Source: Candidatus Aenigmatarchaeota archaeon (GTDB lineage Archaea; Aenigmatarchaeota; Aenigmatarchaeia; CG10238-14; SpSt-28). Taken from it: a stretch of DNA of 64,000 nt. This document shows, one piece after another, positions 14,744 through 50,470 of the stretch. Where the stretch lies: the NCBI GenBank assembly GCA_038733315.1, contig JAVYPJ010000001.1:333020-397019 (forward strand), given 5' to 3'. The translations under genes were made by a program, and so were the position numbers. Positions within the stretch are counted from its first letter, which is position 1. Each line of letters starts with the position of its first letter. The notes under the pieces are model-generated. The model ran no database searches, was not told the origin of the DNA, and worked only from the letters and a program-made list of their open reading frames with translations.

Positions 14744-14892
14744 GCCGGGGTCGCCTAGCTGGCTATGGCGGCGGACTTGAGTGACAGATTGGCGTGAAAC
14801 TGATTAGAAAATGAAAAATGATGTGGGTGTCGAAATGAGAAAGAAATCCGCTGGGCTTTACGCCCGCGTGGGTTCAAATCCCACCCCCGGCG
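14744..14892 (+). tRNA. tRNA-Ser(TGA) with 64-nt intron at 37/38 (14782-14845)
   Basis: GCGGA-CTTGAG/intron/A-TCCGC; long variable arm GGGC-TTTAC-GCCC; G73. Confidence 0.95.
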
Positions 14893-28475: not shown

Positions 28476-28525
28476 TCTGTACCTAGCCTATTTCTTCATT
28501 GTTCAGCTGACCGTCGTTTCTTCAT
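28476..28525 (-). ncRNA. Box C/D guide sRNA
   Basis: ATGAAGA-AACGACGGTCAG-CTGA-ACA-ATGAAGA-AATAGGCTAGGTA-CAGA; canonical spacing, intergenic. Confidence 0.85.
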
Positions 28526-36459: not shown

Positions 36460-36578
36460 TGCGGGGGGTGGGATTTGAACCCACGACGGCTCTACGCCAT
36501 CGGGTTTCTTATCATTTATTCAAAGCTTAAGATTTTATCTTAAGCCCGACGCCCTTGACCAGGCTAGGCGACCCCCGC
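36460..36578 (-). tRNA. tRNA-Leu(TAA) with 33-nt intron at 37/38 (36506-36538)
   Basis: TCGGG-CTTAAG/intron/A-CCCGA; long variable arm; A73. Confidence 0.95.
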
Positions 36579-39226: not shown

Positions 39227-39275
39227 TCAGAAGTACTCCTTTTCATCATTTTTCAGATGCGGCGGTATTCTTCAT
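39227..39275 (-). ncRNA. Box C/D guide sRNA
   Basis: ATGAAGA-ATACCGCCGCAT-CTGA-AAA-ATGATGA-AAAGGAGTACTT-CTGA; two 12-nt guides. Confidence 0.92.
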
Positions 39276-39310: not shown

Positions 39311-39449
39311 GCCGGGGTCGCCTAGCGGATATGGCGCCGGCCTCGAGTTAAATGATAAGCTCTGGGGTAGCTGAAAATAATGATGATTTTGCTATAAGAG
39401 AAAGCCGGTGGGCTTTACGCCCGCGTGGGTTCAAATCCCACCCCCGGCG
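39311..39449 (+). tRNA. tRNA-Ser(CGA) with 55-nt intron at 37/38 (39348-39402)
   Basis: CCGGC-CTCGAG/intron/A-GCCGG; variable arm and 3' part identical to tRNA-Ser(TGA). Confidence 0.95.
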
Positions 39450-39510: not shown

Positions 39511-40722
39511 ATGAAGTTAACAGCTAGCGATATTAAAAACGAAGGAGAATTTAAAGTTTATGGAATTGTTAGTCATGTAAGAGAGCTAGGTCCTAAAAAA
39601 TTTATAATAATAACTGATGGAAAAGACATTTTGCAAGTAGTTTATGAAGGTAATAAAAGGGTTAAAAGAGGGGATAGCATTTTTGCAGTTGGAAATGCAT
39701 TTTTTGATAAAAGAGCTCCAAGAGGAATAGAGCTTAGAGCAAAAGATATAGAAATAATTAATGAAATAAAAGAGGAATCTTTTGATGAATGGAGTATAAA
39801 AAGAATGAGTTTAGACAAAAAAATTAAATATAGAAGTATAAGCTTGAGAATTCCAGAATTTTACAAAATATTCGAAATATATGCTAAGGTTACGCATTAT
39901 TTCAGAGAGTTTTTCATAAATTTAGGCTATTTAGAAATCTTTACTCCAAAGGTTGTTAAAATGGGAACAGAATCCGGGGCTGAAGTATTTTCTATATTAT
40001 ATTTCGATAAAGAAGCTTTTTTAGCGCAGAGTCCGCAACTATATAAACAAATGATGTTAGCTAGCGGTTTAAAAGGTGTTTTTGAGTTTGGTCATTATTA
40101 TAGGGCAGAGGCTTCAAGAACTAAGAGACACTTAACAGAATTTTATTGTTTAGATGTTGAAATAAATTATGTTGAAAGCTTAGACGATGTTATGAAAGTT
40201 TTAGAAGATGCAATAAAATATGTTCTTGAGAAATTTAATTTAAAAATAGAGAAAATACCAATACTAACTTTTGATGAAGCTAAAGAGATTTTAGAAAGAA
40301 ATGGAATAAAAACTAAAAAAGATTTAACAACAGAGGGAGAAAAGTTTATTGGGGATTATGTTAAAGAAAATTTTAATTCCGATTTTGTTTTTATTACAGA
40401 ATTTCCCTTCGACGTAAAACCGTTTTATGTTATGAAAAAAGATGATGGGAAAAGTTATTCTTTTGATTTATTATTTAAAGGTTTAGAAATAGTTTCTGGG
40501 GCTAAAAGAGAGCATAGATACGAAATTCTTATTAATCAAATAAAAGAGAAGAAAATAAATCCAGAAAGAATGTATTGGTATTTAGAAACTTTTAAGCATG
40601 GAATTCCTCCACATGGTGGTTTTGGTTTAGGAATAGATAGATTTGTTAAGCAAATGCTAAACTTAGATGATATAAGAGAATGTGTTTTATATCCTAGAGA
40701 TCCAGATACCTTAGAGCCATGA
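39511..40722 (+). CDS. aspS: Aspartyl-tRNA synthetase (probably non-discriminating)
   Basis: LAQSPQLYKQ, YRAE, RHLTEF, PPHGGFGLGIDR, PRD; co-operonic with gatCAB. Confidence 0.95.
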   Translation: MKLTASDIKNEGEFKVYGIVSHVRELGPKKFIIITDGKDILQVVYEGNKRVKRGDSIFAVGNAFFDKRAPRGIELRAKDIEIINEIKEESFDEWSIKRMSLDKKIKYRSISLRIPEFYKIFEIYAKVTHYFREFFINLGYLEIFTPKVVKMGTESGAEVFSILYFDKEAFLAQSPQLYKQMMLASGLKGVFEFGHYYRAEASRTKRHLTEFYCLDVEINYVESLDDVMKVLEDAIKYVLEKFNLKIEKIPILTFDEAKEILERNGIKTKKDLTTEGEKFIGDYVKENFNSDFVFITEFPFDVKPFYVMKKDDGKSYSFDLLFKGLEIVSGAKREHRYEILINQIKEKKINPERMYWYLETFKHGIPPHGGFGLGIDRFVKQMLNLDDIRECVLYPRDPDTLEP

Positions 40723-40988
40723 TAGAAATAGAAAAAATTGCTTGGCTTGCAAGAATAAAACTAGAAGAAAAAGAAAAGGAAGAATTATTTAAGGATATAT
40801 CTAAAATCTTAGAGATGTTTAAAAAAATACAAGAAGTAAAAATAGAGGAAAAGGATATTGATAGTGATGAAATTTTTGATTTTTTCTTTAGAGGAGAAAC
40901 TATAGCTGAAACTTTTGATAACGAAAAGATTTTGAAGAATTTTCCAAAAAGAGATGAAAATTTGTTAGAAGTTCCTAAGACATTATGA
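40719..40988 (+). CDS. gatC: Asp/Glu-tRNA amidotransferase subunit C
   Basis: IA.LARI.L..E, IL.N.P......VPK; directly precedes gatA. Confidence 0.9.
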   Translation: MIEIEKIAWLARIKLEEKEKEELFKDISKILEMFKKIQEVKIEEKDIDSDEIFDFFFRGETIAETFDNEKILKNFPKRDENLLEVPKTL

Positions 40989-42364
40989 TAACTAAGGAAA
41001 TATTAAGTGAAGCTATATCAAATCCGATAGACCATTTTGAAAAAATTAGAAAAGAAATAGAGAAAAGAGAAAAAGAGGTAAAATCATTTATAACTCTTAA
41101 TATAGATTCTGCTGAAAAAGAAGTTAAAGAAAAAAAAGTTGGAAAATTATCATATTTAATAATTTCAGTTAAAGATAATATTCTTGTTGAAAATTTAAGA
41201 GCTACCGCAGGGTCTAAAATTTTAGAAAACTATATAGCTCCTTATAATGCTACTGTTATAGAAAAAATAAAGAAAGAAGGGGCAATAATAATAGGTAAAA
41301 CAAATTTAGATGAGTTTGCATGCGGTTCAGATGGTACAAATTCTGCTTTTTTTGAAACTAGAAATCCCTTTGATTTGGAAAGAGTTCCTGGAGGATCCTC
41401 ATCTGGCTCTGCTGCAAGCTTAGCTGCAGGTTTTTGCGATTTATCTTTAGGTTCAGATACAGGAGGTTCAATAAGAAATCCAGCAGCCTTTTGTTCTTTA
41501 TTTGGATTTAAACCTAGTTATGGTTTAGTTTCTAGATATGGCTTAATAGATTTAGCTATGAGTATGGATCAAATAGGTCCATTTGCAAAGGATACTTATG
41601 GAATAGCTTTATTGTTAGATGTAATTCATGGAAAAGATGAAAAAGATGCTACAACAGTTAATAAAAGATTTGAGTTTGTTAAAAGGGTTGAAAATTTTAA
41701 CGAAAAGGAATTAAAGAATAGAAAAATAGCATATGCTACAGAATTTTTAGAATATTGCTCCGAAGATATTAAAAAAAGATTTTTTGATGTGTTGAATTAT
41801 TTGTCTAATTTTGGAATAGAAATTAAAGAGATTTCGATACCAGAAGTTAATGTTGCTGTATCAACTTATTATTTAGTTGTTTCTTCTGAATTTTCTTCTG
41901 CAATGCAAAAGTTTGATGGATTAAAATATGGTGTAAGAATAGAAAATAAAGATTTAAACGAAACAATTTTATTATCTAGAAGTTTATTGGGAAAGGAAGT
42001 TAAAAGAAGAATTTTGATTGGTACTTTTGTAACTTCTAGAGAGGGATATGGTAAATGGTATAAAATAGCTATGTTAGTAAGAAATAAAATAAAGCAAAGA
42101 TTTTACTCTATTTTTAAAGATTTCGATTATTTAGTTTCTCCAACTATGCCTGTTAAACCTTGGAAAATTGGAGAGAAAAAAGAACCTATAGAAATGTACC
42201 AAATGGATGTTTTAACAGTTTTAGCAAATTTGGCAAAAATACCTGCTATTTCTATTCCAGTAGATAAATTTATAGGATTCCAAGTTATGGGTAAATATTT
42301 GGAAGATGAAAAACTTTTAGAAATTTCAAAAATAATAGAGGAAAAATTCAATATATGGAAATGA
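40985..42364 (+). CDS. gatA: Amidotransferase subunit A
   Basis: VKDNI, GKTNLDEF, PGGSSSGS, GSDTGGSIR.PA, EVKRRI. Confidence 0.97.
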   Translation: MITKEILSEAISNPIDHFEKIRKEIEKREKEVKSFITLNIDSAEKEVKEKKVGKLSYLIISVKDNILVENLRATAGSKILENYIAPYNATVIEKIKKEGAIIIGKTNLDEFACGSDGTNSAFFETRNPFDLERVPGGSSSGSAASLAAGFCDLSLGSDTGGSIRNPAAFCSLFGFKPSYGLVSRYGLIDLAMSMDQIGPFAKDTYGIALLLDVIHGKDEKDATTVNKRFEFVKRVENFNEKELKNRKIAYATEFLEYCSEDIKKRFFDVLNYLSNFGIEIKEISIPEVNVAVSTYYLVVSSEFSSAMQKFDGLKYGVRIENKDLNETILLSRSLLGKEVKRRILIGTFVTSREGYGKWYKIAMLVRNKIKQRFYSIFKDFDYLVSPTMPVKPWKIGEKKEPIEMYQMDVLTVLANLAKIPAISIPVDKFIGFQVMGKYLEDEKLLEISKIIEEKFNIWK

Positions 42365-43722
42365 AGGTTGGTTTAGAAATTCACGTTCAATTAAAAACAA
42401 AAGAAAAACTTTTTTGTAAATGTAGCTCAGAATATAGAGATAAAAAACCTAATGAAAACATTTGTCCTATATGCACTGGTCAACCAGGTAGCAAACCTAT
42501 GAATGCTAATTTGGAGGCAATAAAAAATCTTTTAAAAATAGGTTTAATACTTAATTGTGAAATAGTTAGAGAAAGAATAAGATTTTTGAGAAAACATTAT
42601 TTTTATCCAGATTTACCTAAGAACTATCAAATAACTTCAGAACCTATAATGAAAAATGGTAATTTTTTTGGAATAAGGATTAGAGAAATTCATTTGGAAG
42701 AAGATCCTGGAAGATATGATTTAAGAAACGGATATGTTGATTTTAATAGGTCTGGAATCCCATTGGCTGAAATAGTTACAGAGCCAGATTTTAATTCAAT
42801 AGAACAAATTGAAGATTGGTTAGATAAATTTTACACTTTTTTAAAATTTTCTAATTCAATAGTAGAAGATCCTGGAAGTATTAGAATAGATGTAAATATT
42901 TCTACAAAAGGAGAAAGAGTTGAAATAAAAAATGTAACTGGAATAAAAAACGTAATAAAAGCAATAAAATACGAATTACTTAGACAAGAAAGAAGTTTAA
43001 AAATAGGTAAAGAAATAAAAAGGGAAACTAGGCATTTTGATGAGGAAAAGAAAATTACAGTACCATTAAGAGAAAAAGAGTATGTTGAAGATTATAGGTA
43101 TATTCCAGAACCAGATTTGCCGAGTTTTAAAATAAATGAAGAATTAATTAACGAAGTAAAAAAAGATTTAATAATCGTTTCTGAAGAAGAGAAAAAGTTA
43201 AAAGAAGTTTATAAAATTAACGAAGAATATATTAAAAAAATTATAAAAAATCCAGTATTACTTATTTCAATTAATAAAATTTTTGAAAATGTTAAAAAAG
43301 ACTTTAATAAAATAGCGGAATTAATTACTGATTACGTTTATCCTATATGCGGGGATAAAAATATAAATTTATTAAATCTTTTAGAGGATAATAATTTTTT
43401 GGAAAATTTAGAGGAAATAGTTGAAAATCTGGATAAAATAGATAGAAAAAAGTTAAGAGAAATAGTCGAAGTTTTAATTTCTGGTAAAAATCCAATAGAA
43501 TATGCAAAAGAGAAAAATTATTTTTTAGAGGGTGTCTCTGAGGAAGAAATAAAAAAAGTAATAGAAATGGTAATAAACGAAGAAAAAGAAGCTATAGAAG
43601 ATTACAAAAAAGGAAATGCTAAGGCAATAAATTATTTAATTGGAAAGACTATTCAAAAACTTAAAAAAAGGGTTGATGTAAAGATTATAGATAAGTTTTT
43701 AAGAGAATTTCTATCAAAATAA
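42355..43722 (+). CDS. gatB: Amidotransferase subunit B
   Basis: GLEIHVQL, RKHYFYPDLPK, HLEED, DFNRSG.PL.EIVTEPD, DYRYIPEPDL. Confidence 0.97.
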   Translation: MEMKVGLEIHVQLKTKEKLFCKCSSEYRDKKPNENICPICTGQPGSKPMNANLEAIKNLLKIGLILNCEIVRERIRFLRKHYFYPDLPKNYQITSEPIMKNGNFFGIRIREIHLEEDPGRYDLRNGYVDFNRSGIPLAEIVTEPDFNSIEQIEDWLDKFYTFLKFSNSIVEDPGSIRIDVNISTKGERVEIKNVTGIKNVIKAIKYELLRQERSLKIGKEIKRETRHFDEEKKITVPLREKEYVEDYRYIPEPDLPSFKINEELINEVKKDLIIVSEEEKKLKEVYKINEEYIKKIIKNPVLLISINKIFENVKKDFNKIAELITDYVYPICGDKNINLLNLLEDNNFLENLEEIVENLDKIDRKKLREIVEVLISGKNPIEYAKEKNYFLEGVSEEEIKKVIEMVINEEKEAIEDYKKGNAKAINYLIGKTIQKLKKRVDVKIIDKFLREFLSK

Positions 43723-43728
43723 AATGTT

Positions 43729-44706
43729 TTAAATTTTTTCTATAATATTCTCTCTAACTTTAAAGATTTTTCCTAAGAATTTTTCTATAGTATAAATATT
43801 TGTAAGTGTATGATTAGATATTTCTTCAACTTTTATTGTAGATTTTTCTTCACATAGTGCTAAATAAATTAAGATTTGATCTGCCATATATCTATCTAAA
43901 CATGCATTAGAATTTTCAGCATTTTTTAGATTATTGATAGCAATCTTTGAATTTTCTAAACTATCGCTTCCTAAAACGCAATTCTCATAATAAGATGCAA
44001 TAGTAACAGAAAAACCTTTACTTAATGTTTTTTCATTCCTTATCTTTAATTCAACACCTTTTAATTCATTTTTTATAACTTCAGCTTCTTCTCTTATTCT
44101 TTTTTCATCTTCAAATGCAGAAATTCTTGCTACATATTTTAAAAAATTCTTTCTTTCAATCATTTCTATACCATTTAATTTTTTTATTGGGTAAATCTCT
44201 ATTTCAATTATTCCTCCACCCTTTGGATAAAATCCATGTTTTACTATATTAATTTCTGGTTTTTCTATTCCTAAAAACTTTAAGTTTTCAAACTTAACTA
44301 AATCTAAATAATCTATTGTTGGTGCGTGTAATACACATGTGCCACCAATTATTCTTAATTTGACTTTTTTATTTGAAAGAAAAGAGATTATCGGAAAAAT
44401 AGTTTGTAAAAATAAAGAAATGCTGCCAGCAGTTCCAATATTAATTTCTTCAAAATTTAGGATATTTTCTTCTTTCGGAATAAATTCGATTTCAGTACTT
44501 CCAATATATAATCCTTTAACTTCTGCGTTTAATAATTTAGCTGCAAACTTTGCTCCAGCTAAATGTTGAGCTTTCAATCCTGGTTGTGGTCTATTTTTTC
44601 TAATATTATAAATTCTAAAAGGTTTTTTAAGAATGCAAGATAAAGCTATCGAAGTCCTTAAAATTTGACCGCCACCCTCTAAATAACTACCATCTATTTC
44701 AATCAT
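43729..44706 (-). CDS. rtcA: RNA 3'-terminal phosphate cyclase
   Basis: DGSYLEGGGQILR, PGLKAQH, GFYPKGGG, DQILIY, NHTLTN. Confidence 0.95.
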   Translation of the reverse strand: MIEIDGSYLEGGGQILRTSIALSCILKKPFRIYNIRKNRPQPGLKAQHLAGAKFAAKLLNAEVKGLYIGSTEIEFIPKEENILNFEEINIGTAGSISLFLQTIFPIISFLSNKKVKLRIIGGTCVLHAPTIDYLDLVKFENLKFLGIEKPEINIVKHGFYPKGGGIIEIEIYPIKKLNGIEMIERKNFLKYVARISAFEDEKRIREEAEVIKNELKGVELKIRNEKTLSKGFSVTIASYYENCVLGSDSLENSKIAINNLKNAENSNACLDRYMADQILIYLALCEEKSTIKVEEISNHTLTNIYTIEKFLGKIFKVRENIIEKI

Positions 44707-44732
44707 AAAATAAATTTTAAAATATTAAAGAA

Positions 44733-44803
44733 TGGGTCCGCCCGGAGTTGAACCGGGTTCTCCGCCTCGTAAGGGCGGCGTCCTACCGTTAGACTACGGA
44801 CCC
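44733..44803 (-). tRNA. tRNA-Val(TAC)
   Basis: CCGCC-CTTACGA-GGCGG. Confidence 0.97.
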
Positions 44804-44850
44804 ATAAATTTATCAGAGATAATAAAGTTAAATTCTTCGTATAATATCAT

Positions 44851-44947
44851 TGGGGCCGCTGGGATTCGAACCCAGGTCAGCGGGTTTCTTCACTTTTCTG
44901 AGCTCCATTTCTGGAGCCCGCCGTCCTGCCATCTAGACGACGGCCCC
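44851..44947 (-). tRNA. tRNA-Trp(CCA) with 25-nt intron at 37/38 (44886-44910)
   Basis: GCGGG-CTCCAG/intron/A-CCCGC. Confidence 0.95.
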
Positions 44948-44989
44948 ATAAATTGTTAAGATTTTTATATCTTTTCATAAAATATTTAT

Positions 44990-45388
44990 ATGGCCGAATT
45001 TAGACTAAGGGGGTATACTTTGGAAGAATTAGAGAGAATGAGCTTAGAGGAGCTTGCAAAAAAAGTTTTTGATGCGAGAGTTAGAAGAAAAATTTTAAAA
45101 AGAGGATTTACTGAGCAAGAAAAAAAGTTTTTAGAAAAAATTAAAGAAATAAAACAAAAAAATCCGAATAAATTTATAAAAACGCATTTAAGACAAATGC
45201 CAATTTTACCTATAATGGTTGGATTAACTATTGGAGTACATAACGGAAAAGAGTTTGTGCCAGTAAAAATAAGGCCAGAAATGATTGGTAGAAGATTGGG
45301 CGAGTTTTCAATAACAATAAAAGAGGTAAAGCATAGTGGACCTGGGATTGGGGCTACTAGGGGAACTAAATTCTTATCTGTGAAATGA
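44990..45388 (+). CDS. rps19: 30S ribosomal protein uS19
   Basis: KTHLR, VHNGKEF, MIG..LGEFS.T, HSGPGIGATR. Confidence 0.97.
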   Translation: MAEFRLRGYTLEELERMSLEELAKKVFDARVRRKILKRGFTEQEKKFLEKIKEIKQKNPNKFIKTHLRQMPILPIMVGLTIGVHNGKEFVPVKIRPEMIGRRLGEFSITIKEVKHSGPGIGATRGTKFLSVK

Positions 45389-45738
45389 TTGCTTCGGCAT
45401 ATATTAAAAATCTTAGAATTTCTACTAAGCATGCAAAATATATTTCGAAAATTATTAGAGGTAAAAATGTGTTAAAAGCTAAGAGATTTTTGGAGTTGGT
45501 ATCCCAACAAAAATTAACCTTAGATGGAAAAAAGTATTATTTAAACGCTACAAGAGCAATTTTAAAAGCGCTAGAAAGTGCTATAGCTAATGCAAAAGTT
45601 AAAGGCTTAGATGAGAATAAGTTAAAAATAAAAATAATAGAAGCTCATAAGGGATCTAAAATAAGAACTCCTAAAAGGGTTAAGTTTAGGGGTAGGGAAA
45701 AGAAAAATACTCATATTAAAATTGTTTTATCCTATTAA
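45385..45738 (+). CDS. rpl22: 50S ribosomal protein uL22
   Basis: RIS.KH, IRGK, ESAIANA, THIKIVL. Confidence 0.95.
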   Translation: MIASAYIKNLRISTKHAKYISKIIRGKNVLKAKRFLELVSQQKLTLDGKKYYLNATRAILKALESAIANAKVKGLDENKLKIKIIEAHKGSKIRTPKRVKFRGREKKNTHIKIVLSY

Positions 45739-45739
45739 T

Positions 45740-46327
45740 ATGGGGGCTACTGAAAAGAAAATTATTACTCAAAAAATTGTTGAAGTAGAGTTGGAGGATT
45801 ATCTAAAAAATATTTTTGAAAAGGCTGAATATAGCGGTTTAAGAGTGGAGAAAACCCCTATACTTACTAGAATATTTGTTTTTGTTGGTAAGCCTGCGAT
45901 AGCAATCGCTAGATTAAGAAGAAGGGAAGAAGAAATAAAGGAAACTTTAACTAAAAACTATAACATTCTTAATCCTCAAATTGTAATTCAAGAGGTTCAA
46001 AATCCATATTTAGATGCGAGAATTATAGCTTATAGAATAAAAAAAGCTATAGAAAAAGGTATAAATTTTAAAAAAGCAGCATTATTTTATATCGAGCGCT
46101 GCATGGAGAACGGAGCTTTAGGAATAGAAGTTAGAATCGCCGGAAAATTATTAGGTAAAGAGAGAAGTGCAGCTTATAAGTTTCGAAAAGGATATATTTT
46201 ACATACAGGATTTCTTAAGGAAATGTATATTGACGAAGCAAAACAACAAGCTATAATTCCTGTTGGAATAGTTGGAATAAGAGTAAGAATACTTAAATAC
46301 TTACCTCCACTAGTTTCTGCTAAATAA
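45740..46327 (+). CDS. rps3: 30S ribosomal protein uS3
   Basis: KH domain, NPYLDA, GALGIEVRIAGKL, GIVGIRVRI; ATG at 45740. Confidence 0.95.
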   Translation: MGATEKKIITQKIVEVELEDYLKNIFEKAEYSGLRVEKTPILTRIFVFVGKPAIAIARLRRREEEIKETLTKNYNILNPQIVIQEVQNPYLDARIIAYRIKKAIEKGINFKKAALFYIERCMENGALGIEVRIAGKLLGKERSAAYKFRKGYILHTGFLKEMYIDEAKQQAIIPVGIVGIRVRILKYLPPLVSAK

Positions 46328-46536
46328 TGGCCATTTTAAGAATTAAAGAGATAAGAGAGATGAAAAATGAGGATTTAATTGAAAGGTTAAATAGATTAAG
46401 AGAGGAGTTAGAGAAATTAAGGATGCAAACTCAAATGAAAAGACCTATAAAAAATACGAGTAGAATAAGAGAGCTAAGAAGGACTATTGCAAGAATTCTT
46501 ACAGTTTTAAGAGAGAGAGGTATAAAAATTCGATGA
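46327..46536 (+). CDS. rpl29: 50S ribosomal protein uL29
   Basis: EIREM, RIRELRRTIARILT. Confidence 0.97.
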   Translation: MAILRIKEIREMKNEDLIERLNRLREELEKLRMQTQMKRPIKNTSRIRELRRTIARILTVLRERGIKIR

Positions 46537-46820
46537 GCGAGGTTTGCCAAATTTGCGGATTACCAAAAGATTTATGTGTTTGTGAAAAGAAAGTAGAAGA
46601 AAAAATTATTGTAAGAGTTGAGAGAAGGAGCTTAGGTAAAATAGTTACTCTGATAAGTGGAATTCAAGAGAATCTAAAAGAAATTTCTAGTAAACTAAAG
46701 AGCAGACTTGGATGTGGAGGAACTGTAAAAAACGGAATTATTGAATTGCAAGGGGATCATAGAAGAAGAATTAGAGAGTTGCTAAATGAGCTTGGTTTTA
46801 AGAATGTAGAAATTTATTAG
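46533..46820 (+). CDS. sui1: Translation initiation factor aIF1 (SUI1)
   Basis: CQICGLPKDLCVC, GKIVT, CGGTVK..IELQGDH. Confidence 0.97.
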   Translation: MSEVCQICGLPKDLCVCEKKVEEKIIVRVERRSLGKIVTLISGIQENLKEISSKLKSRLGCGGTVKNGIIELQGDHRRRIRELLNELGFKNVEIY

Positions 46821-47929
46821 CTTATTGGTTCAAAAATTATATTTTTCTTTTTAGCATATTCATAACATTTTTTAATTTCCTCATAGTTTAATCTTCTTGA
46901 AATTTCTGGAAACTTATAGGGAAATTTTTCTACTAAGTATTCTGGCCTATATTGATCCATTATGTTAACTAATACATTCGGTAATTTTTCTGAAATATAA
47001 TCCAAAATTTTATATGTGCAACATTCTAAATGATTTGGCAAAACTAAATGTCTTATTATTATATTTTCGCCAAAATCGTGAATTATTTTATGGTTTCTTG
47101 AAACAACTTCAAAATAATTTTTTATTTTACTATATTTGAAAGCGCATTGATTATTACCATATTTAAAATCGGGTAGCCAAATATCTATTAAATCTAATAA
47201 CAAATTTAAGCTTTCTTTTGTCATGTACATATTCGAATTCCAAAGTAATGCAATATTTTCATTAAAATATTTCAAACTTTCTAAGATTGTATGTAAGTTT
47301 TGATCTGGATTACCACCAACAAAGTTTATGTTTATCGCGCCTTCTTCACATAATTCTTTTTCTATTTTCGAAAGTTCCATAGGATTAACTTCAAAACCAT
47401 TCTTAGGGTTTTGGCTTATATCCCAATTTTGACAATATACACATTTAAAACTACAGCCAGTAAAAAATATTGTACCAGAAGGAATTAGTGGTGCTTCTTC
47501 TCCATAATGTAAAAAAGCAGATGCAACTCTAGTAACATTATCCAATCCGCATTTTCCCTTTTCATTTTCTAATCTTTTTGCAAGGCACATATTTTCACAA
47601 AATCTGCATGGAGACAGCATTCTATATGCTAGCTCTATTTTAACATCTAAAAAGTTTAACTTATCTTTTTCAAAAATTAAATTAATATTTTTGCCTCTTT
47701 TTATGTTTTCGAGTAAAGCTATAAATTCGTTTCTTAATTCTGAATGGATTTTCCATAATTCGTTCTCTTCTAATTCTTTTAAATTTAAACTTTCTTTGAG
47801 AATTATAGATTTTGCAATTAAATATTTGGCTATAACTTCTTTTTTTAAGATTTTATAATACCAGTTAAGCTTTTCTTTAACTTCTTTATTCTTCCATATA
47901 CTTACAGAATCAAATCTAAAAAATACCAT
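46817..47929 (-). CDS. PflX-like radical SAM protein
   Basis: HYGEE..L.PSGTIFFTGCSFKCVYCQN, DFKYG, IRHLVLP.H, MDQYRP. Confidence 0.93.
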   Translation of the reverse strand: MVFFRFDSVSIWKNKEVKEKLNWYYKILKKEVIAKYLIAKSIILKESLNLKELEENELWKIHSELRNEFIALLENIKRGKNINLIFEKDKLNFLDVKIELAYRMLSPCRFCENMCLAKRLENEKGKCGLDNVTRVASAFLHYGEEAPLIPSGTIFFTGCSFKCVYCQNWDISQNPKNGFEVNPMELSKIEKELCEEGAININFVGGNPDQNLHTILESLKYFNENIALLWNSNMYMTKESLNLLLDLIDIWLPDFKYGNNQCAFKYSKIKNYFEVVSRNHKIIHDFGENIIIRHLVLPNHLECCTYKILDYISEKLPNVLVNIMDQYRPEYLVEKFPYKFPEISRRLNYEEIKKCYEYAKKKNIIFEPIS

Positions 47930-47938
47930 AAAAATTTT

Positions 47939-49060
47939 ATGAGGTTTAAAGAAATTCCAAAAGAGCTTTTGAAAAGAGTTTATAAATGGAAAGTTTTAAT
48001 AGAAAGTAAAAATGAATTTTTTGGAAGTTCTCCGCCAAGTATTTTCGTATCTTCTGTGAATTATCCAAAAGTTAATATTGGTGCACTCTCTTTACCAATA
48101 ATAGATGAGAATAGCTATTATTTAGATTCTCCAGAGCTTTGGTATAAAGATGGTTTAGGTTTTGAGGAGATTATTGATTTAAGGTCTAGATTAATATACT
48201 CTTTTCAAAACGTTAACATCAAAAGAAAATTTAATTTTATTGAGAAAATTCAAGAATTGGCTTTAGCTAAGAATGTTGTAGATTTAGAGGTTAAACTAAA
48301 GAATAAACCGAAATTTAAGTTTTTGTTCGATAGGTTTATTTCTCCTATAGGTAATCCTGCAAAAATGGAAAATTTAAAAATTCAAAGTAATGTTAAGATT
48401 GAAAATTTTGTTGAAAGAATTATTAACGATGAAATAAAAGCTTATGATGCAGTTTTTTTACTTTATGAAAAGAATTTAGAAGTTTCGAGAATTCAAAAAA
48501 TTTTTTCTGCTGGGTTATTGGGAATAGAGAAAAAGATTATTCCAACAAGATGGAGTATTACAGCTATAGATAGTATTATTAGCGATAAATTGATAAAGAG
48601 AATCAGAGAGTATAAAATCTTAGATAAATTTCGGGTTTTTTATAATGAATATTTAGGGAACAAGTTTTGGATAGTTTTGTTGCCATACGTTTTTGGTTTT
48701 GAAATGGTAGAATTCATTGGAAATAAAATTTATCAAGATTATGAAATATTTTTTGAAAGAAAAAAGTATGCTGAAAATGTTGCAGGTGGTTATTATGCAG
48801 CTAGATTAGCATGCTGTGAATATTTAGAAAAAATAAGGAGACAAGCTGCTATTATAGTTTTTAGAAAGGTAGAAAAACTTTTTACAATTCCTTTGGGTGT
48901 GTGGAAAGTTAGAGAGTGTGTAAGAGGCGCTTTTAATAATAAATCAATAGAATTTAATTCTCAAGAGGAATTAGAGAAATATTTAATCGAAAATAATTTA
49001 GATATAAGCCTTAGCAAAATTTTAAAAATTTATAAAACTCAGAAAACCCTTATAATATAA
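47939..49060 (+). CDS. nreA: Nre-family DNA repair protein (DUF650/DUF651)
   Basis: GSSPPSIFV...YPKV, PTRWSITAID, GGYYAARL, PLGVW.VRE, C-terminal PIP-like QKTL. Confidence 0.92.
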   Translation: MRFKEIPKELLKRVYKWKVLIESKNEFFGSSPPSIFVSSVNYPKVNIGALSLPIIDENSYYLDSPELWYKDGLGFEEIIDLRSRLIYSFQNVNIKRKFNFIEKIQELALAKNVVDLEVKLKNKPKFKFLFDRFISPIGNPAKMENLKIQSNVKIENFVERIINDEIKAYDAVFLLYEKNLEVSRIQKIFSAGLLGIEKKIIPTRWSITAIDSIISDKLIKRIREYKILDKFRVFYNEYLGNKFWIVLLPYVFGFEMVEFIGNKIYQDYEIFFERKKYAENVAGGYYAARLACCEYLEKIRRQAAIIVFRKVEKLFTIPLGVWKVRECVRGAFNNKSIEFNSQEELEKYLIENNLDISLSKILKIYKTQKTLII

Positions 49061-49086
49061 TAAGAATTTTTGCAGTTTAGAAATTG

Positions 49087-49118
49087 TACTGCACAAATTT
49101 ATTAATTTTTGTGCAGTA
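49087..49118 (+). promoter_or_regulatory. Inverted repeat flanking a TATA-like box at the array start
   Basis: TACTGCACAAA-TTTATTAATT-TTTGTGCAGTA, perfect 11-bp arms. Confidence 0.7.
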
Positions 49119-49174
49119 TGATTTTTATGATAAAAAATAAATTGGAAAAATTTTTAATTAACTAAATAATTTAT

Positions 49175-50470
49175 ATGGAAAACTATAAAGATAAGTTAAT
49201 AGAATCTATAGAGGAGTTCTGGAGAAAAGAATTACCAATTTTGAAAGAAAGGGAAGTAAAGATAGATTTGGAAACAGAGCTTATTAACGATATAATAGGT
49301 GTTAGAAGGGCTGGAAAAACATCGGCAATGTTATTAACTATAAGTAAATTAGGAAAAGAAAGATGTATTTACTTAAATTTTGAAAATAGGAAGCTATTTC
49401 CTTTAACTAATAAGTACTTTGATGCTATAGTCGAGTTTATCTATGGTAGAGAATTACTTAAAAAATTTGGAAAAATTTACTTATTTCTAGATGAAGTTCA
49501 AAGGATAAACGAGTGGGAAAGATATGTAAGAAGTATTTATGATGAGTTTAAGGGTAAAATAAAAATATTCATTTCTGGATCAACTTCTAAATTATCAGCT
49601 TCAGAACTTTCAACTTTGCTAAGTGGGAGACATATTACTACTTATGTATTTCCGTTGAGTTTTAGGGAATTCTTAGGCTTTAAGGAGTTTAAGATTCCAA
49701 GTTTCTATATAGAGGAAGATAGGGCAAGAGTGTTAAGATTCTTAAAGGAATATATTGAATTTGGTGGTTTTCCAGAGGTGGTTTTAAGTGATAAAAAAGA
49801 AGAAATTCTTCAAACCCTAATGCTTGATATTATAAATAGAGATGTATTGCCAAGAGTTGTTAAAAGAGGAGAAATAGTTGAAGATTTTGTATATTTCTTA
49901 TGTAGTAACAGCGGAAAACTTTTAAGTTTCAACGAGATGGCAAGGTTATTTGCAAAAACATCTGTATTAACTGTTCAAAAAATTTTCAGCTTATTAAAGG
50001 ATGTTTTTCTTTTTTTCGACTTTTCTATATTTTCTTATAGTGTAAAAACTCAGCTTTTATATCCGAAAAAGATAATTTGTGTGGATCAAGGTTTTATAAA
50101 TCAATTTGGCTTTAAGTTTAGCGAAGATTGGGGTAGATTAATGGAGAATTTAGTTGGGATAGAACTTTTAAGAAGATATGGATTAATAGGAAAGACAAGG
50201 GTATTTTACTGGAAAGAATATGGAAAAAGAGATGGTAGCGAAGTAGATTTCGTTATTAAAGAAGGCTTAGAAATTAAGCAATTAATCCAAGTAACTTATG
50301 CTTCTAATAAAGATGAAATTGAAAAAAGAGAAATAAGGGCATTAATTAAAGCTTCAGAGCAATTAAAATGCAAAGACTTATTAATAATTACTTGGGATTA
50401 TGAGGATGAAATAAAAATAAATAGCAAAACAATTAAATGCATGCCTTTATGGAAATGGTTGTTAAAATAG
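49175..50470 (+). CDS. AAA_14/wHTH/DUF4143 ATPase, array copy 1
   Basis: GVRRAGKT, LDEVQ, SGS, GR, GGFPE, MEN, EVDFV. Confidence 0.93.
   Translation: MENYKDKLIESIEEFWRKELPILKEREVKIDLETELINDIIGVRRAGKTSAMLLTISKLGKERCIYLNFENRKLFPLTNKYFDAIVEFIYGRELLKKFGKIYLFLDEVQRINEWERYVRSIYDEFKGKIKIFISGSTSKLSASELSTLLSGRHITTYVFPLSFREFLGFKEFKIPSFYIEEDRARVLRFLKEYIEFGGFPEVVLSDKKEEILQTLMLDIINRDVLPRVVKRGEIVEDFVYFLCSNSGKLLSFNEMARLFAKTSVLTVQKIFSLLKDVFLFFDFSIFSYSVKTQLLYPKKIICVDQGFINQFGFKFSEDWGRLMENLVGIELLRRYGLIGKTRVFYWKEYGKRDGSEVDFVIKEGLEIKQLIQVTYASNKDEIEKREIRALIKASEQLKCKDLLIITWDYEDEIKINSKTIKCMPLWKWLLK

Follow-up and report, generated by a model that had tools for sequence, protein, structure and literature searches.

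The locus described here lies in the window, that is, the whole stretch of 64,000 nucleotides that was analysed, which is part of a genome of 0.73 Mb in 7 contigs with 27% G+C and whose DNA is contained in hot-spring metagenome runs (15 runs listed for window 40000-49999, all of DNA). When ARAGORN was run with introns allowed, a tRNA-Trp gene with an intron was called on the minus strand, within which the following features were distinguished:

44851-44947, minus strand: tRNA-Trp(CCA) gene with intron (Rfam tRNA, 52.8 bits; ARAGORN Trp(cca), i(37,25))
44911-44947, minus strand: 5′ exon, nt 1-37, read from the sequence
44918-44912, minus strand: G30-A36, read from the sequence, with the predicted target C34 at 44914
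44886-44910, minus strand: 25-nt intron at position 37/38 (ARAGORN and sequence)
44901-44907, minus strand: putative guide UGGAGCU, antisense to G30-A36, whose third base pairs with C34
44897-44900, minus strand: D′-like box CAGA (consensus CUGA); an NNGA stands at the same offset in 18/18 Trp genes
44894-44896, minus strand: AAA, which together with the next two bases (GU) makes the 5-nt loop of the putative K-loop
44887-44893, minus strand: C′-like box GUGAAGA, whose GAAG, facing C35-C32, is also the 3′ strand of the splicing helix (bulge-helix-bulge, BHB)
44851-44885, minus strand: 3′ exon, nt 38-73, up to the end of the Rfam tRNA match

Read from 44910 down to 44886, the intron consists of AAA, UGGAGCU, CAGA, AAA, GUGAAGA and A, which reproduces exactly the minus-strand sequence and the boxes claimed in the original prediction. 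It sits at the canonical 37/38 position of archaeal BHB introns, and its splice point can slide by one base within the A run, leaving the mature tRNA unchanged. The UGGAGCU stretch pairs with G30-A36 in a duplex of 7 bp, shorter than usual, in which G30 forms the one G-U pair, and direct reading of the sequence places a G opposite C34 as the fifth base upstream of CAGA. Both the pairing and this N+5 register, in which the target is the nucleotide paired five bases upstream of the box, had been proposed beforehand.

C′/D′ K-loops bound by L7Ae are characterised by an invariant GA in both boxes and by a short pairing stem beyond them. The Trp intron contains a single GA-box pair, D′ followed by C′, arranged as CAGA, a 5-nt loop and GAAG, in which D′2 and C′5 are A.A, not U.U. 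No second pair corresponding to the terminal C/D pair (RUGAUGA/CUGA K-turn) was found in the intron or its flanks, and a second guide is absent from the intron, nt 37 being separated from the putative guide by a 3-nt spacer without an upstream C box. A guide for U39, which would be an antisense to nt 38-43 preceding a D box, was likewise not detected in the intron. The earlier description of the intron as one guide with one D/C pair is thus borne out. At gathering thresholds, Rfam recognised the locus as a tRNA only; a match of the C/D family sR17 to the intron was sub-threshold (15.9 bits against a cut-off of 36, E 0.23) and was counted as no evidence. When the intron was shuffled by mononucleotides, the full layout, defined as 7 or more bp of duplex running through nt 34, an NNGA at the offset and, further downstream, a UGA with a sixth position able to pair with D′1, was obtained in 4 of 300,000 sequences. 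The layout is far beyond chance, and it recurs in other introns, so that the argument previously made against coincidence holds.

The nearest known counterpart is the tRNA-Trp intron of euryarchaea, which is presented in the available parts of reviews from 2014 and 2024 as the unique tRNA intron encoding a unit for the modification of its own tRNA, guiding Cm34 and Um39 and having a median length of 65 nt, in agreement with the longer, two-guide introns to which the original prediction had compared the present one. As in the pre-tRNA-Trp of Haloferax volcanii and of Pyrococcus (sR50), in the portions of those descriptions at hand, the intron described here occupies position 37/38, is antisense to its own anticodon loop and has C34 as its (predicted) target. 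Dependence on L7Ae, Nop5 and fibrillarin and action before or around splicing, which the same sources give for the euryarchaeal intron, are predicted here. However, the euryarchaeal introns are described there as about 65-105 nt long, with both C/D and C′/D′ motifs and with guides for C34 and U39, whereas the present one has 25 nt, one motif and one guide. Similarly, archaeal box C/D sRNAs have two guides of about 12 nt between their motifs and the Trp intron has one of 7 nt, and the guide-target duplex of box C/D RNPs is cited, in the text accessible, as 10 bp, longer than the 7 bp of Trp.

According to the sections available, box C/D RNPs require for methylation a two-fold RNA that carries two protein-binding motifs, and half-mer C/D RNAs appear there solely as crystallography constructs. 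Such synthetic half-mers, used for the Pyrococcus and Sulfolobus RNP crystals, resemble the Trp intron in having one K-turn and one guide and in being combined with L7Ae, Nop5 and fibrillarin, but according to the same partial sources they are laboratory constructs. Another DPANN case is the 66-nt tRNA-Met intron of Nanoarchaeum equitans, a C/D-like stable RNA, which in the available part of its description is also an intron of a non-Trp tRNA with C and D box elements; it differs in being much longer, in its GC hairpin and in that neither a target nor a half-size design is described in that part. Single-motif guides in tRNA introns are not described anywhere in the full-text literature covered, which includes few subscription-journal papers and neither the Haloferax nor the Pyrococcus originals, and a natural single-K-turn C/D RNP does not appear in the parts of it available.

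The Trp intron is accompanied by others of the same design in this genome. ARAGORN found 49 tRNA genes, 15 of them with introns, and the half-size layout is present in 8 of these 15, namely Trp CCA, Leu CAA, Leu UAA, Gln UUG, Lys UUU, Glu UUC, Met CAU, which is of the elongator type, and a Ser UGA gene located on the small contig C3. The introns share a short spacer, an antisense to their own anticodon loop, YUGA or CAGA, 3-9 nt, (R)UGAnnA and a GAA end before A38, and by hand reading the N+5 base pairs with nt 34 in all eight. The layout is missing in the 7 other introns (Cys GCA, Tyr GUA, Thr UGU, Ile UAU, Ala CGC, Ser CGA and the Ser UGA of contig C1), and the other C34 or U34 tRNAs of the genome are without such an intron. 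The tRNA-Leu intron in which the same layout had been reported fits as well:

36460-36578, minus strand: tRNA-Leu(UAA) with a 33-nt intron at 36506-36538 (match to covariance model R1, described below, E 1.2e-7); the intron reads guide, UUGA, loop, AUGAUAA, with N+5 on U34

Several anticodons of intron-containing tRNAs were mislabelled by ARAGORN and were re-read by hand:

C1:190074-190179: ARAGORN Stop(tta), hand reading Gln UUG
C2:115924-116032: ARAGORN Stop(tta), hand reading Lys UUU
C2:206553-206660: ARAGORN Ser(tga), hand reading Glu UUC
C1:101853-101941: ARAGORN Phe(aaa), hand reading Ala CGC
C2:99351-99445: ARAGORN Ala(agc), hand reading Thr UGU

The contigs C3 and C4 duplicate tRNA species of C1 and C2 (Ser UGA, Ile GAU, Lys CUU, Pro) with differing sequences; a second strain may be their source, the estimated contamination being 4.2%.

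The conservation of the layout was evaluated among relatives by using the Trp gene as a BLAST query against 101 genomes of the same order, 70 of which gave matches. ARAGORN recognised a tRNA-Trp in 18 of 30 fetched loci, the window's own included, and the layout was found in all 18 of these genes (17 parsed by script and L022 by hand). The box at the N+5 offset is CUGA in 9, UUGA in 5, CCGA in 2, CAGA in 1 (the window) and UGGA in 1, and the partner boxes shift together with it, CCGA occurring with GAGG, UGGA with GACA, UUGA with GAAA and CUGA with GAAG or GAGG. In the 25-nt introns of the window's genus the C′ box coincides with the strand that pairs with nt 32-35, whereas in the longer Trp introns (28-41 nt: L018, L020, L021 and L022) it lies upstream of that strand.

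A covariance model, R1, was built from 13 arms and encodes the anticodon stem, the pairing of nt 32-36 with the guide and the pairing of D′1/D′2 with C′6/C′5. In its own genome, R1 recovered 7 of the 8 layout introns at E <0.01, Glu(UUC) being missed, and gave E 0.22 on tRNA-Ser(CGA). At E <=0.001 it matched 63 of 151 sampled Aenigmatarchaeota genomes, and in the window's family all 7 genomes have a match, with 5-6 matches each. A total of 100 matches were realigned, leaving out L153-L162 (10 fetched regions) and a few unfetched matches, and all 100 were found within tRNA genes. Their anticodons include CCA 46, CAA 14, UUG 13, UAA 9, UGA 4, UCU 4, UUU 3 and CGA 2, and in every one of the 100 the anticodon starts with C or U. 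An NNGA at N+5 follows the longest duplex through nt 34 in 93 of 100 when read automatically and in 2 more when the next-best duplex is taken. The remaining 5 are two-intron genes, Lys UUU (2) and Leu UAA (3), which R1 had mis-registered and which show the same layout by hand and fit N+5 after re-reading. In these genes (L094, L129, L112, L120 and L135), mis-read by ARAGORN as well as by R1, one intron is placed in the anticodon stem at about nt 30/31 and the half-size-guide intron at 37/38.

Because spacing and pairs are built into R1, the counts among the 100 matches lean towards the model; R1 played no part in selecting the 18 Trp genes and the 8 introns of this genome. Pairing in the guide helix of the 100 introns amounts to 99.4%, and the helix varies in step with the anticodon: nt 34 forms C-G in 62 and U-A in 33, and the observed covariation was reached in none of 500 shuffles. 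The guide duplex ranges from 5 to 12 bp and the spacer between nt 37 and the guide, which is hairpin-like, from 3 to 13 nt.

Outside the phylum, R1 matched 13 of 151 genomes in the phylum of a Woesearchaeota-titled MAG, with one match each, and these 13 matches and 1 weaker match are all tRNA-Trp; in the phylum of a Micrarchaeota-titled MAG it matched 2 of 31 genomes. In the phylum of a Euryarchaeota-titled MAG (G203), R1 matched none of 121 genomes, a result for which that phylum offers no positive control and which shows only that R1 does not fire at random.

The covariation of the boxes was counted by a script because the C′ boxes came out misaligned when all 25 arms were aligned by MAFFT, and because the third helix of A4, an alignment made by the model, joins D′ to the final AG of the intron instead of to the C′ box. 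The C′ box was taken as the first UGA at least 3 nt after D′, by which 93 of the 100 rows could be counted, the 5 two-intron rows and 2 rows without a UGA being excluded. It was verified that the GA is invariant in the D′ and C′ boxes of the family and that D′1 and C′6 are paired in 91 of 93 introns (C-G 50, U-A 31, U-G 6, A-U 3, G-C 1). Random permutation of the boxes across the sequences gave a mean of 66.8 D′1:C′6 pairs (sd 2.4, maximum 75 in 5000 trials), and when the rule was changed to the last UGA, the count dropped to 83 of 93. The D′2:C′5 positions are U-A in 46, U.U in 29, U-G in 11, C-G in 2 and A.A in 2, the first four classes making up about 89 of 93. The loop of the putative K-loop mostly has 3-10 nt; in L130, L134, L136 and L139, which are long introns from another order of the class, a stem-loop takes its place. 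By eye, 11 of the 14 Trp introns from the phylum of the Woesearchaeota-titled MAG consist of D′, a hairpin, exactly 3 unpaired bases and GA, and this combination is true K-turn geometry as read from the sequences. Thus, the D′ and C′ boxes covary as those of a K-loop should, and a binding site for L7Ae is predicted.

The proteins that such a site would call for are encoded in the genome, where the fibrillarin and Nop5 genes adjoin on C1 and an L7Ae gene is also present. Free C/D sRNAs were searched with a strict regular expression, which returned 1 candidate, and with a relaxed one, which returned 5, shuffled genomes yielding 1-3; this number is not significant by itself, and complementarity to rRNA or tRNA supports four of the five candidates:

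C1:209712-209760: free sRNA candidate, 11 bp to two 16S sites
28476-28525, minus strand: free two-guide C/D sRNA with the boxes AUGAAGA, CUGA, UGAAGA and CAGA
39227-39275, minus strand: free sRNA candidate, 9 bp to 23S
C2:59116-59165, minus strand: canonical free C/D sRNA whose D′ guide has 10 bp to 16S near position 736

The D′ guide of the sRNA at 28476-28525 forms 11 Watson-Crick bp with 23S rRNA near position 2040, and this sRNA combines CAGA with UGAAGA and AUGAAGA, which confirms that the CAGA and RTGAAGA variants seen in the Trp intron also occur in free sRNAs of this genome. Its D guide has a 10-bp match to the D arm of four tRNA-Leu genes.

The D guide of the sRNA at C2:59116-59165 forms 10 Watson-Crick bp with the C1 pre-tRNA-Ser(UGA), the first intron bases included, with N+5 on U34. 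That tRNA gene (window 14744-14892, plus strand) carries a 64-nt intron without the half-size guide, whereas the Ser(UGA) genes on C3 and in relatives carry it. Since the sRNA is predicted to target U34 of Ser(UGA), the two-motif route and the intron route would here aim at the same nucleotide. The 64-nt intron contains several UGA or CUGA box-like strings and no antisense to its own anticodon. Free C/D sRNAs for nt 34 are known from other archaea: in the accessible part of a 2021 review, four Pyrococcus sRNAs target this nucleotide in Leu CAA, Leu UAA, Met and Trp, and as far as the available text of a 2008 study goes, the guide for Trp invariably resides in the intron and that for Met invariably has a gene of its own. 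These sRNAs share with the introns the target position and, in the sources as available, an overlapping set of tRNAs (Leu CAA, Leu UAA, Met, Trp), but they are separate genes of full two-motif design that act in trans. Extra 2′-O-methyl groups at nt 34 are a feature of thermophilic archaea, according to the portions of the literature at hand. The idea that, in a reduced genome, Um34 substitutes for the usual base modifications of U34 was unsupported, as an Elp3 gene is present (559 bits); an Ncs6-like match was below its cut-off.

From the layout, its conservation, the covariation of the boxes and the presence of the protein genes, which are observed, we infer protein binding, methylation, action in cis and an order of events. 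The intron is probably a natural single-motif C′/D′ guide for the ribose methylation of nt 34 in the pre-tRNA, acting before splicing, as suggested by the K-loop signature, the N+5 register, a guide that follows the anticodon, the presence of the machinery and a free sRNA predicted to have the same target. In the new pre-tRNA, the guide would pair with nt 30-36 and form a short hairpin, L7Ae would bind the adjacent K-loop and recruit Nop5 and fibrillarin, and fibrillarin would methylate the 2′-OH of C34, whose pairing partner is the fifth guide base counted upstream from the D′ box. Refolding would then pair nt 32-35 with the 3′ end of the intron into a relaxed BHB, from which the splicing endonuclease would excise the intron.

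Two foldings of the Trp anticodon arm with its intron are in line with such a sequence of events. The MFE structure given by RNAfold is the guide hairpin (-14.6 kcal/mol), and the best fold in which the splicing helix is enforced reaches -7.0 kcal/mol. In the splicing helix, which is relaxed, C32-G, U33-A and C35-G are paired around a C34.A mismatch; the last two intron bases and A38 form an AA|A bulge, and an inner helix is absent. It follows from the two foldings that the partner of nt 32-35 is either the guide or the intron 3′ end, and in the 25-nt form both folds are mutually exclusive because the C′ box is itself the splicing strand (GAAG). The single-guide C/D reading put forward in the original prediction is supported at every point that sequence can test, namely register, boxes, recurrence and covariation.

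The main alternative is that L7Ae is bound without methylation, the K-loop serving only as a structural or timing device that holds a non-spliceable fold or aids refolding. We regard it as unlikely: although the K-loop signature argues for L7Ae binding and is silent on fibrillarin, and although exclusive guide and splicing folds would suit a timing role and the guide duplexes are short, such a device leaves unexplained the exact N+5 distance to nt 34 in every case, the canonical sRNA for U34 of a tRNA that lacks the element and the overlap of the tRNA set with the known archaeal C/D targets at nt 34. The N+5 register could, for its part, follow partly from the hairpin stopping where the anticodon stem begins.

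It is improbable that the guide becomes active only after splicing, with the excised 25-nt intron, linear or circular and perhaps as two copies per Nop5 dimer, acting in trans on tRNA-Trp. Action in trans is favoured by in-vitro work on the Haloferax pre-tRNA-Trp, as recounted in the available parts of reviews, and partial sources also report that archaeal tRNA introns can be circular and that C/D RNP crystal structures were obtained from separate half-mer RNAs. On the other hand, a 7-bp duplex would be weak between molecules and would also have to open G30 and G31 of the anticodon stem, and the short, hairpin-like spacer of the family, together with a hairpin that is the MFE fold, suits pairing within one molecule.

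A role of the motifs purely in splicing, as a lineage-specific substrate without L7Ae, would rest on the pairing between the anticodon loop and the intron 3′ ends and on the endonuclease. Among 95 introns, the 3′ end pairs with nt 32 in 95, with nt 33 in 92, with nt 35 in 71 and with nt 34 in 36, the tail is AA|A in 82, and the G of the C′ box is the fifth base from the intron end in 44, as in Trp, the register in which C′ overlaps the BHB strand. The splicing endonuclease is atypical, being a single chain of 397 aa with an N-terminal domain and two catalytic-type stretches (C2:44239-45432, minus strand; L035 1189-2382), an architecture reminiscent of the three-unit type described for ARMAN-2. 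However, the 7 other introns of this genome are presumably spliced without the motifs, the C′ box of the longer introns, which stands apart from the splicing strand, is still conserved and covaries with D′, and the geometry of hairpin, 3-nt bulge and GA in another phylum is that of a K-turn, so that this reading appears very improbable. That the intron is a decaying, today functionless remnant of an ancestral full-length C/D intron is hardly credible, since its being shorter than euryarchaeal Trp introns and the truncated C′ boxes of a few relatives (L012, L111, L152) stand against a phylum-wide layout, compensatory box changes and guides matching ten anticodons, eight of them among the realigned matches and two more, Glu UUC and Met CAU, in this genome.

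Phylum-wide conservation together with compensatory changes in boxes and guides indicates selection on the layout. Beyond the Trp intron, the wider proposal that a whole DPANN phylum would methylate nt 34 of up to ten tRNA species by half-mer intron guides of 22-40 nt, with a simpler, Trp-only version in a second phylum, is given an even chance here. In Aenigmatarchaeota the design is found in at least nine tRNA species besides Trp, whereas the euryarchaeal case is the Trp intron.

If the preferred reading of the intron as a single-motif guide is true, one K-loop and a 7-nt guide would suffice in vivo. Self-guiding would then be used for many tRNAs and not for one, and tiny introns that look like junk would have a job, which would help to explain the persistence of tRNA introns in reduced genomes. 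Under the wider proposal, no smaller guide RNA would be known, a natural C/D RNP operating with one motif would be on record for the first time, and the design would be a living example of the half unit whose duplication may have given the two-fold C/D RNAs. In its compact form, the same four bases would be both a protein-binding box and a strand of the splice-site helix, an RNA switch that would order methylation and splicing. The Trp intron would also offer a simple reconstitution system for how Nop5 and fibrillarin measure the target.

A further intron of the window is of another kind. The tRNA-Ser(CGA) at 39311-39449 (plus strand) contains a 55-nt intron that resembles a full two-motif C/D sRNA, with AUGAUAA, a guide, CUGA, AUGAUGA, a second guide and GAGA in this order. 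Its D′ guide has 11-12 bp with two 23S rRNA sites and none with its own anticodon; in the relatives L086 and L091, tRNA-Ser(CGA) carries instead a half-size guide for C34.
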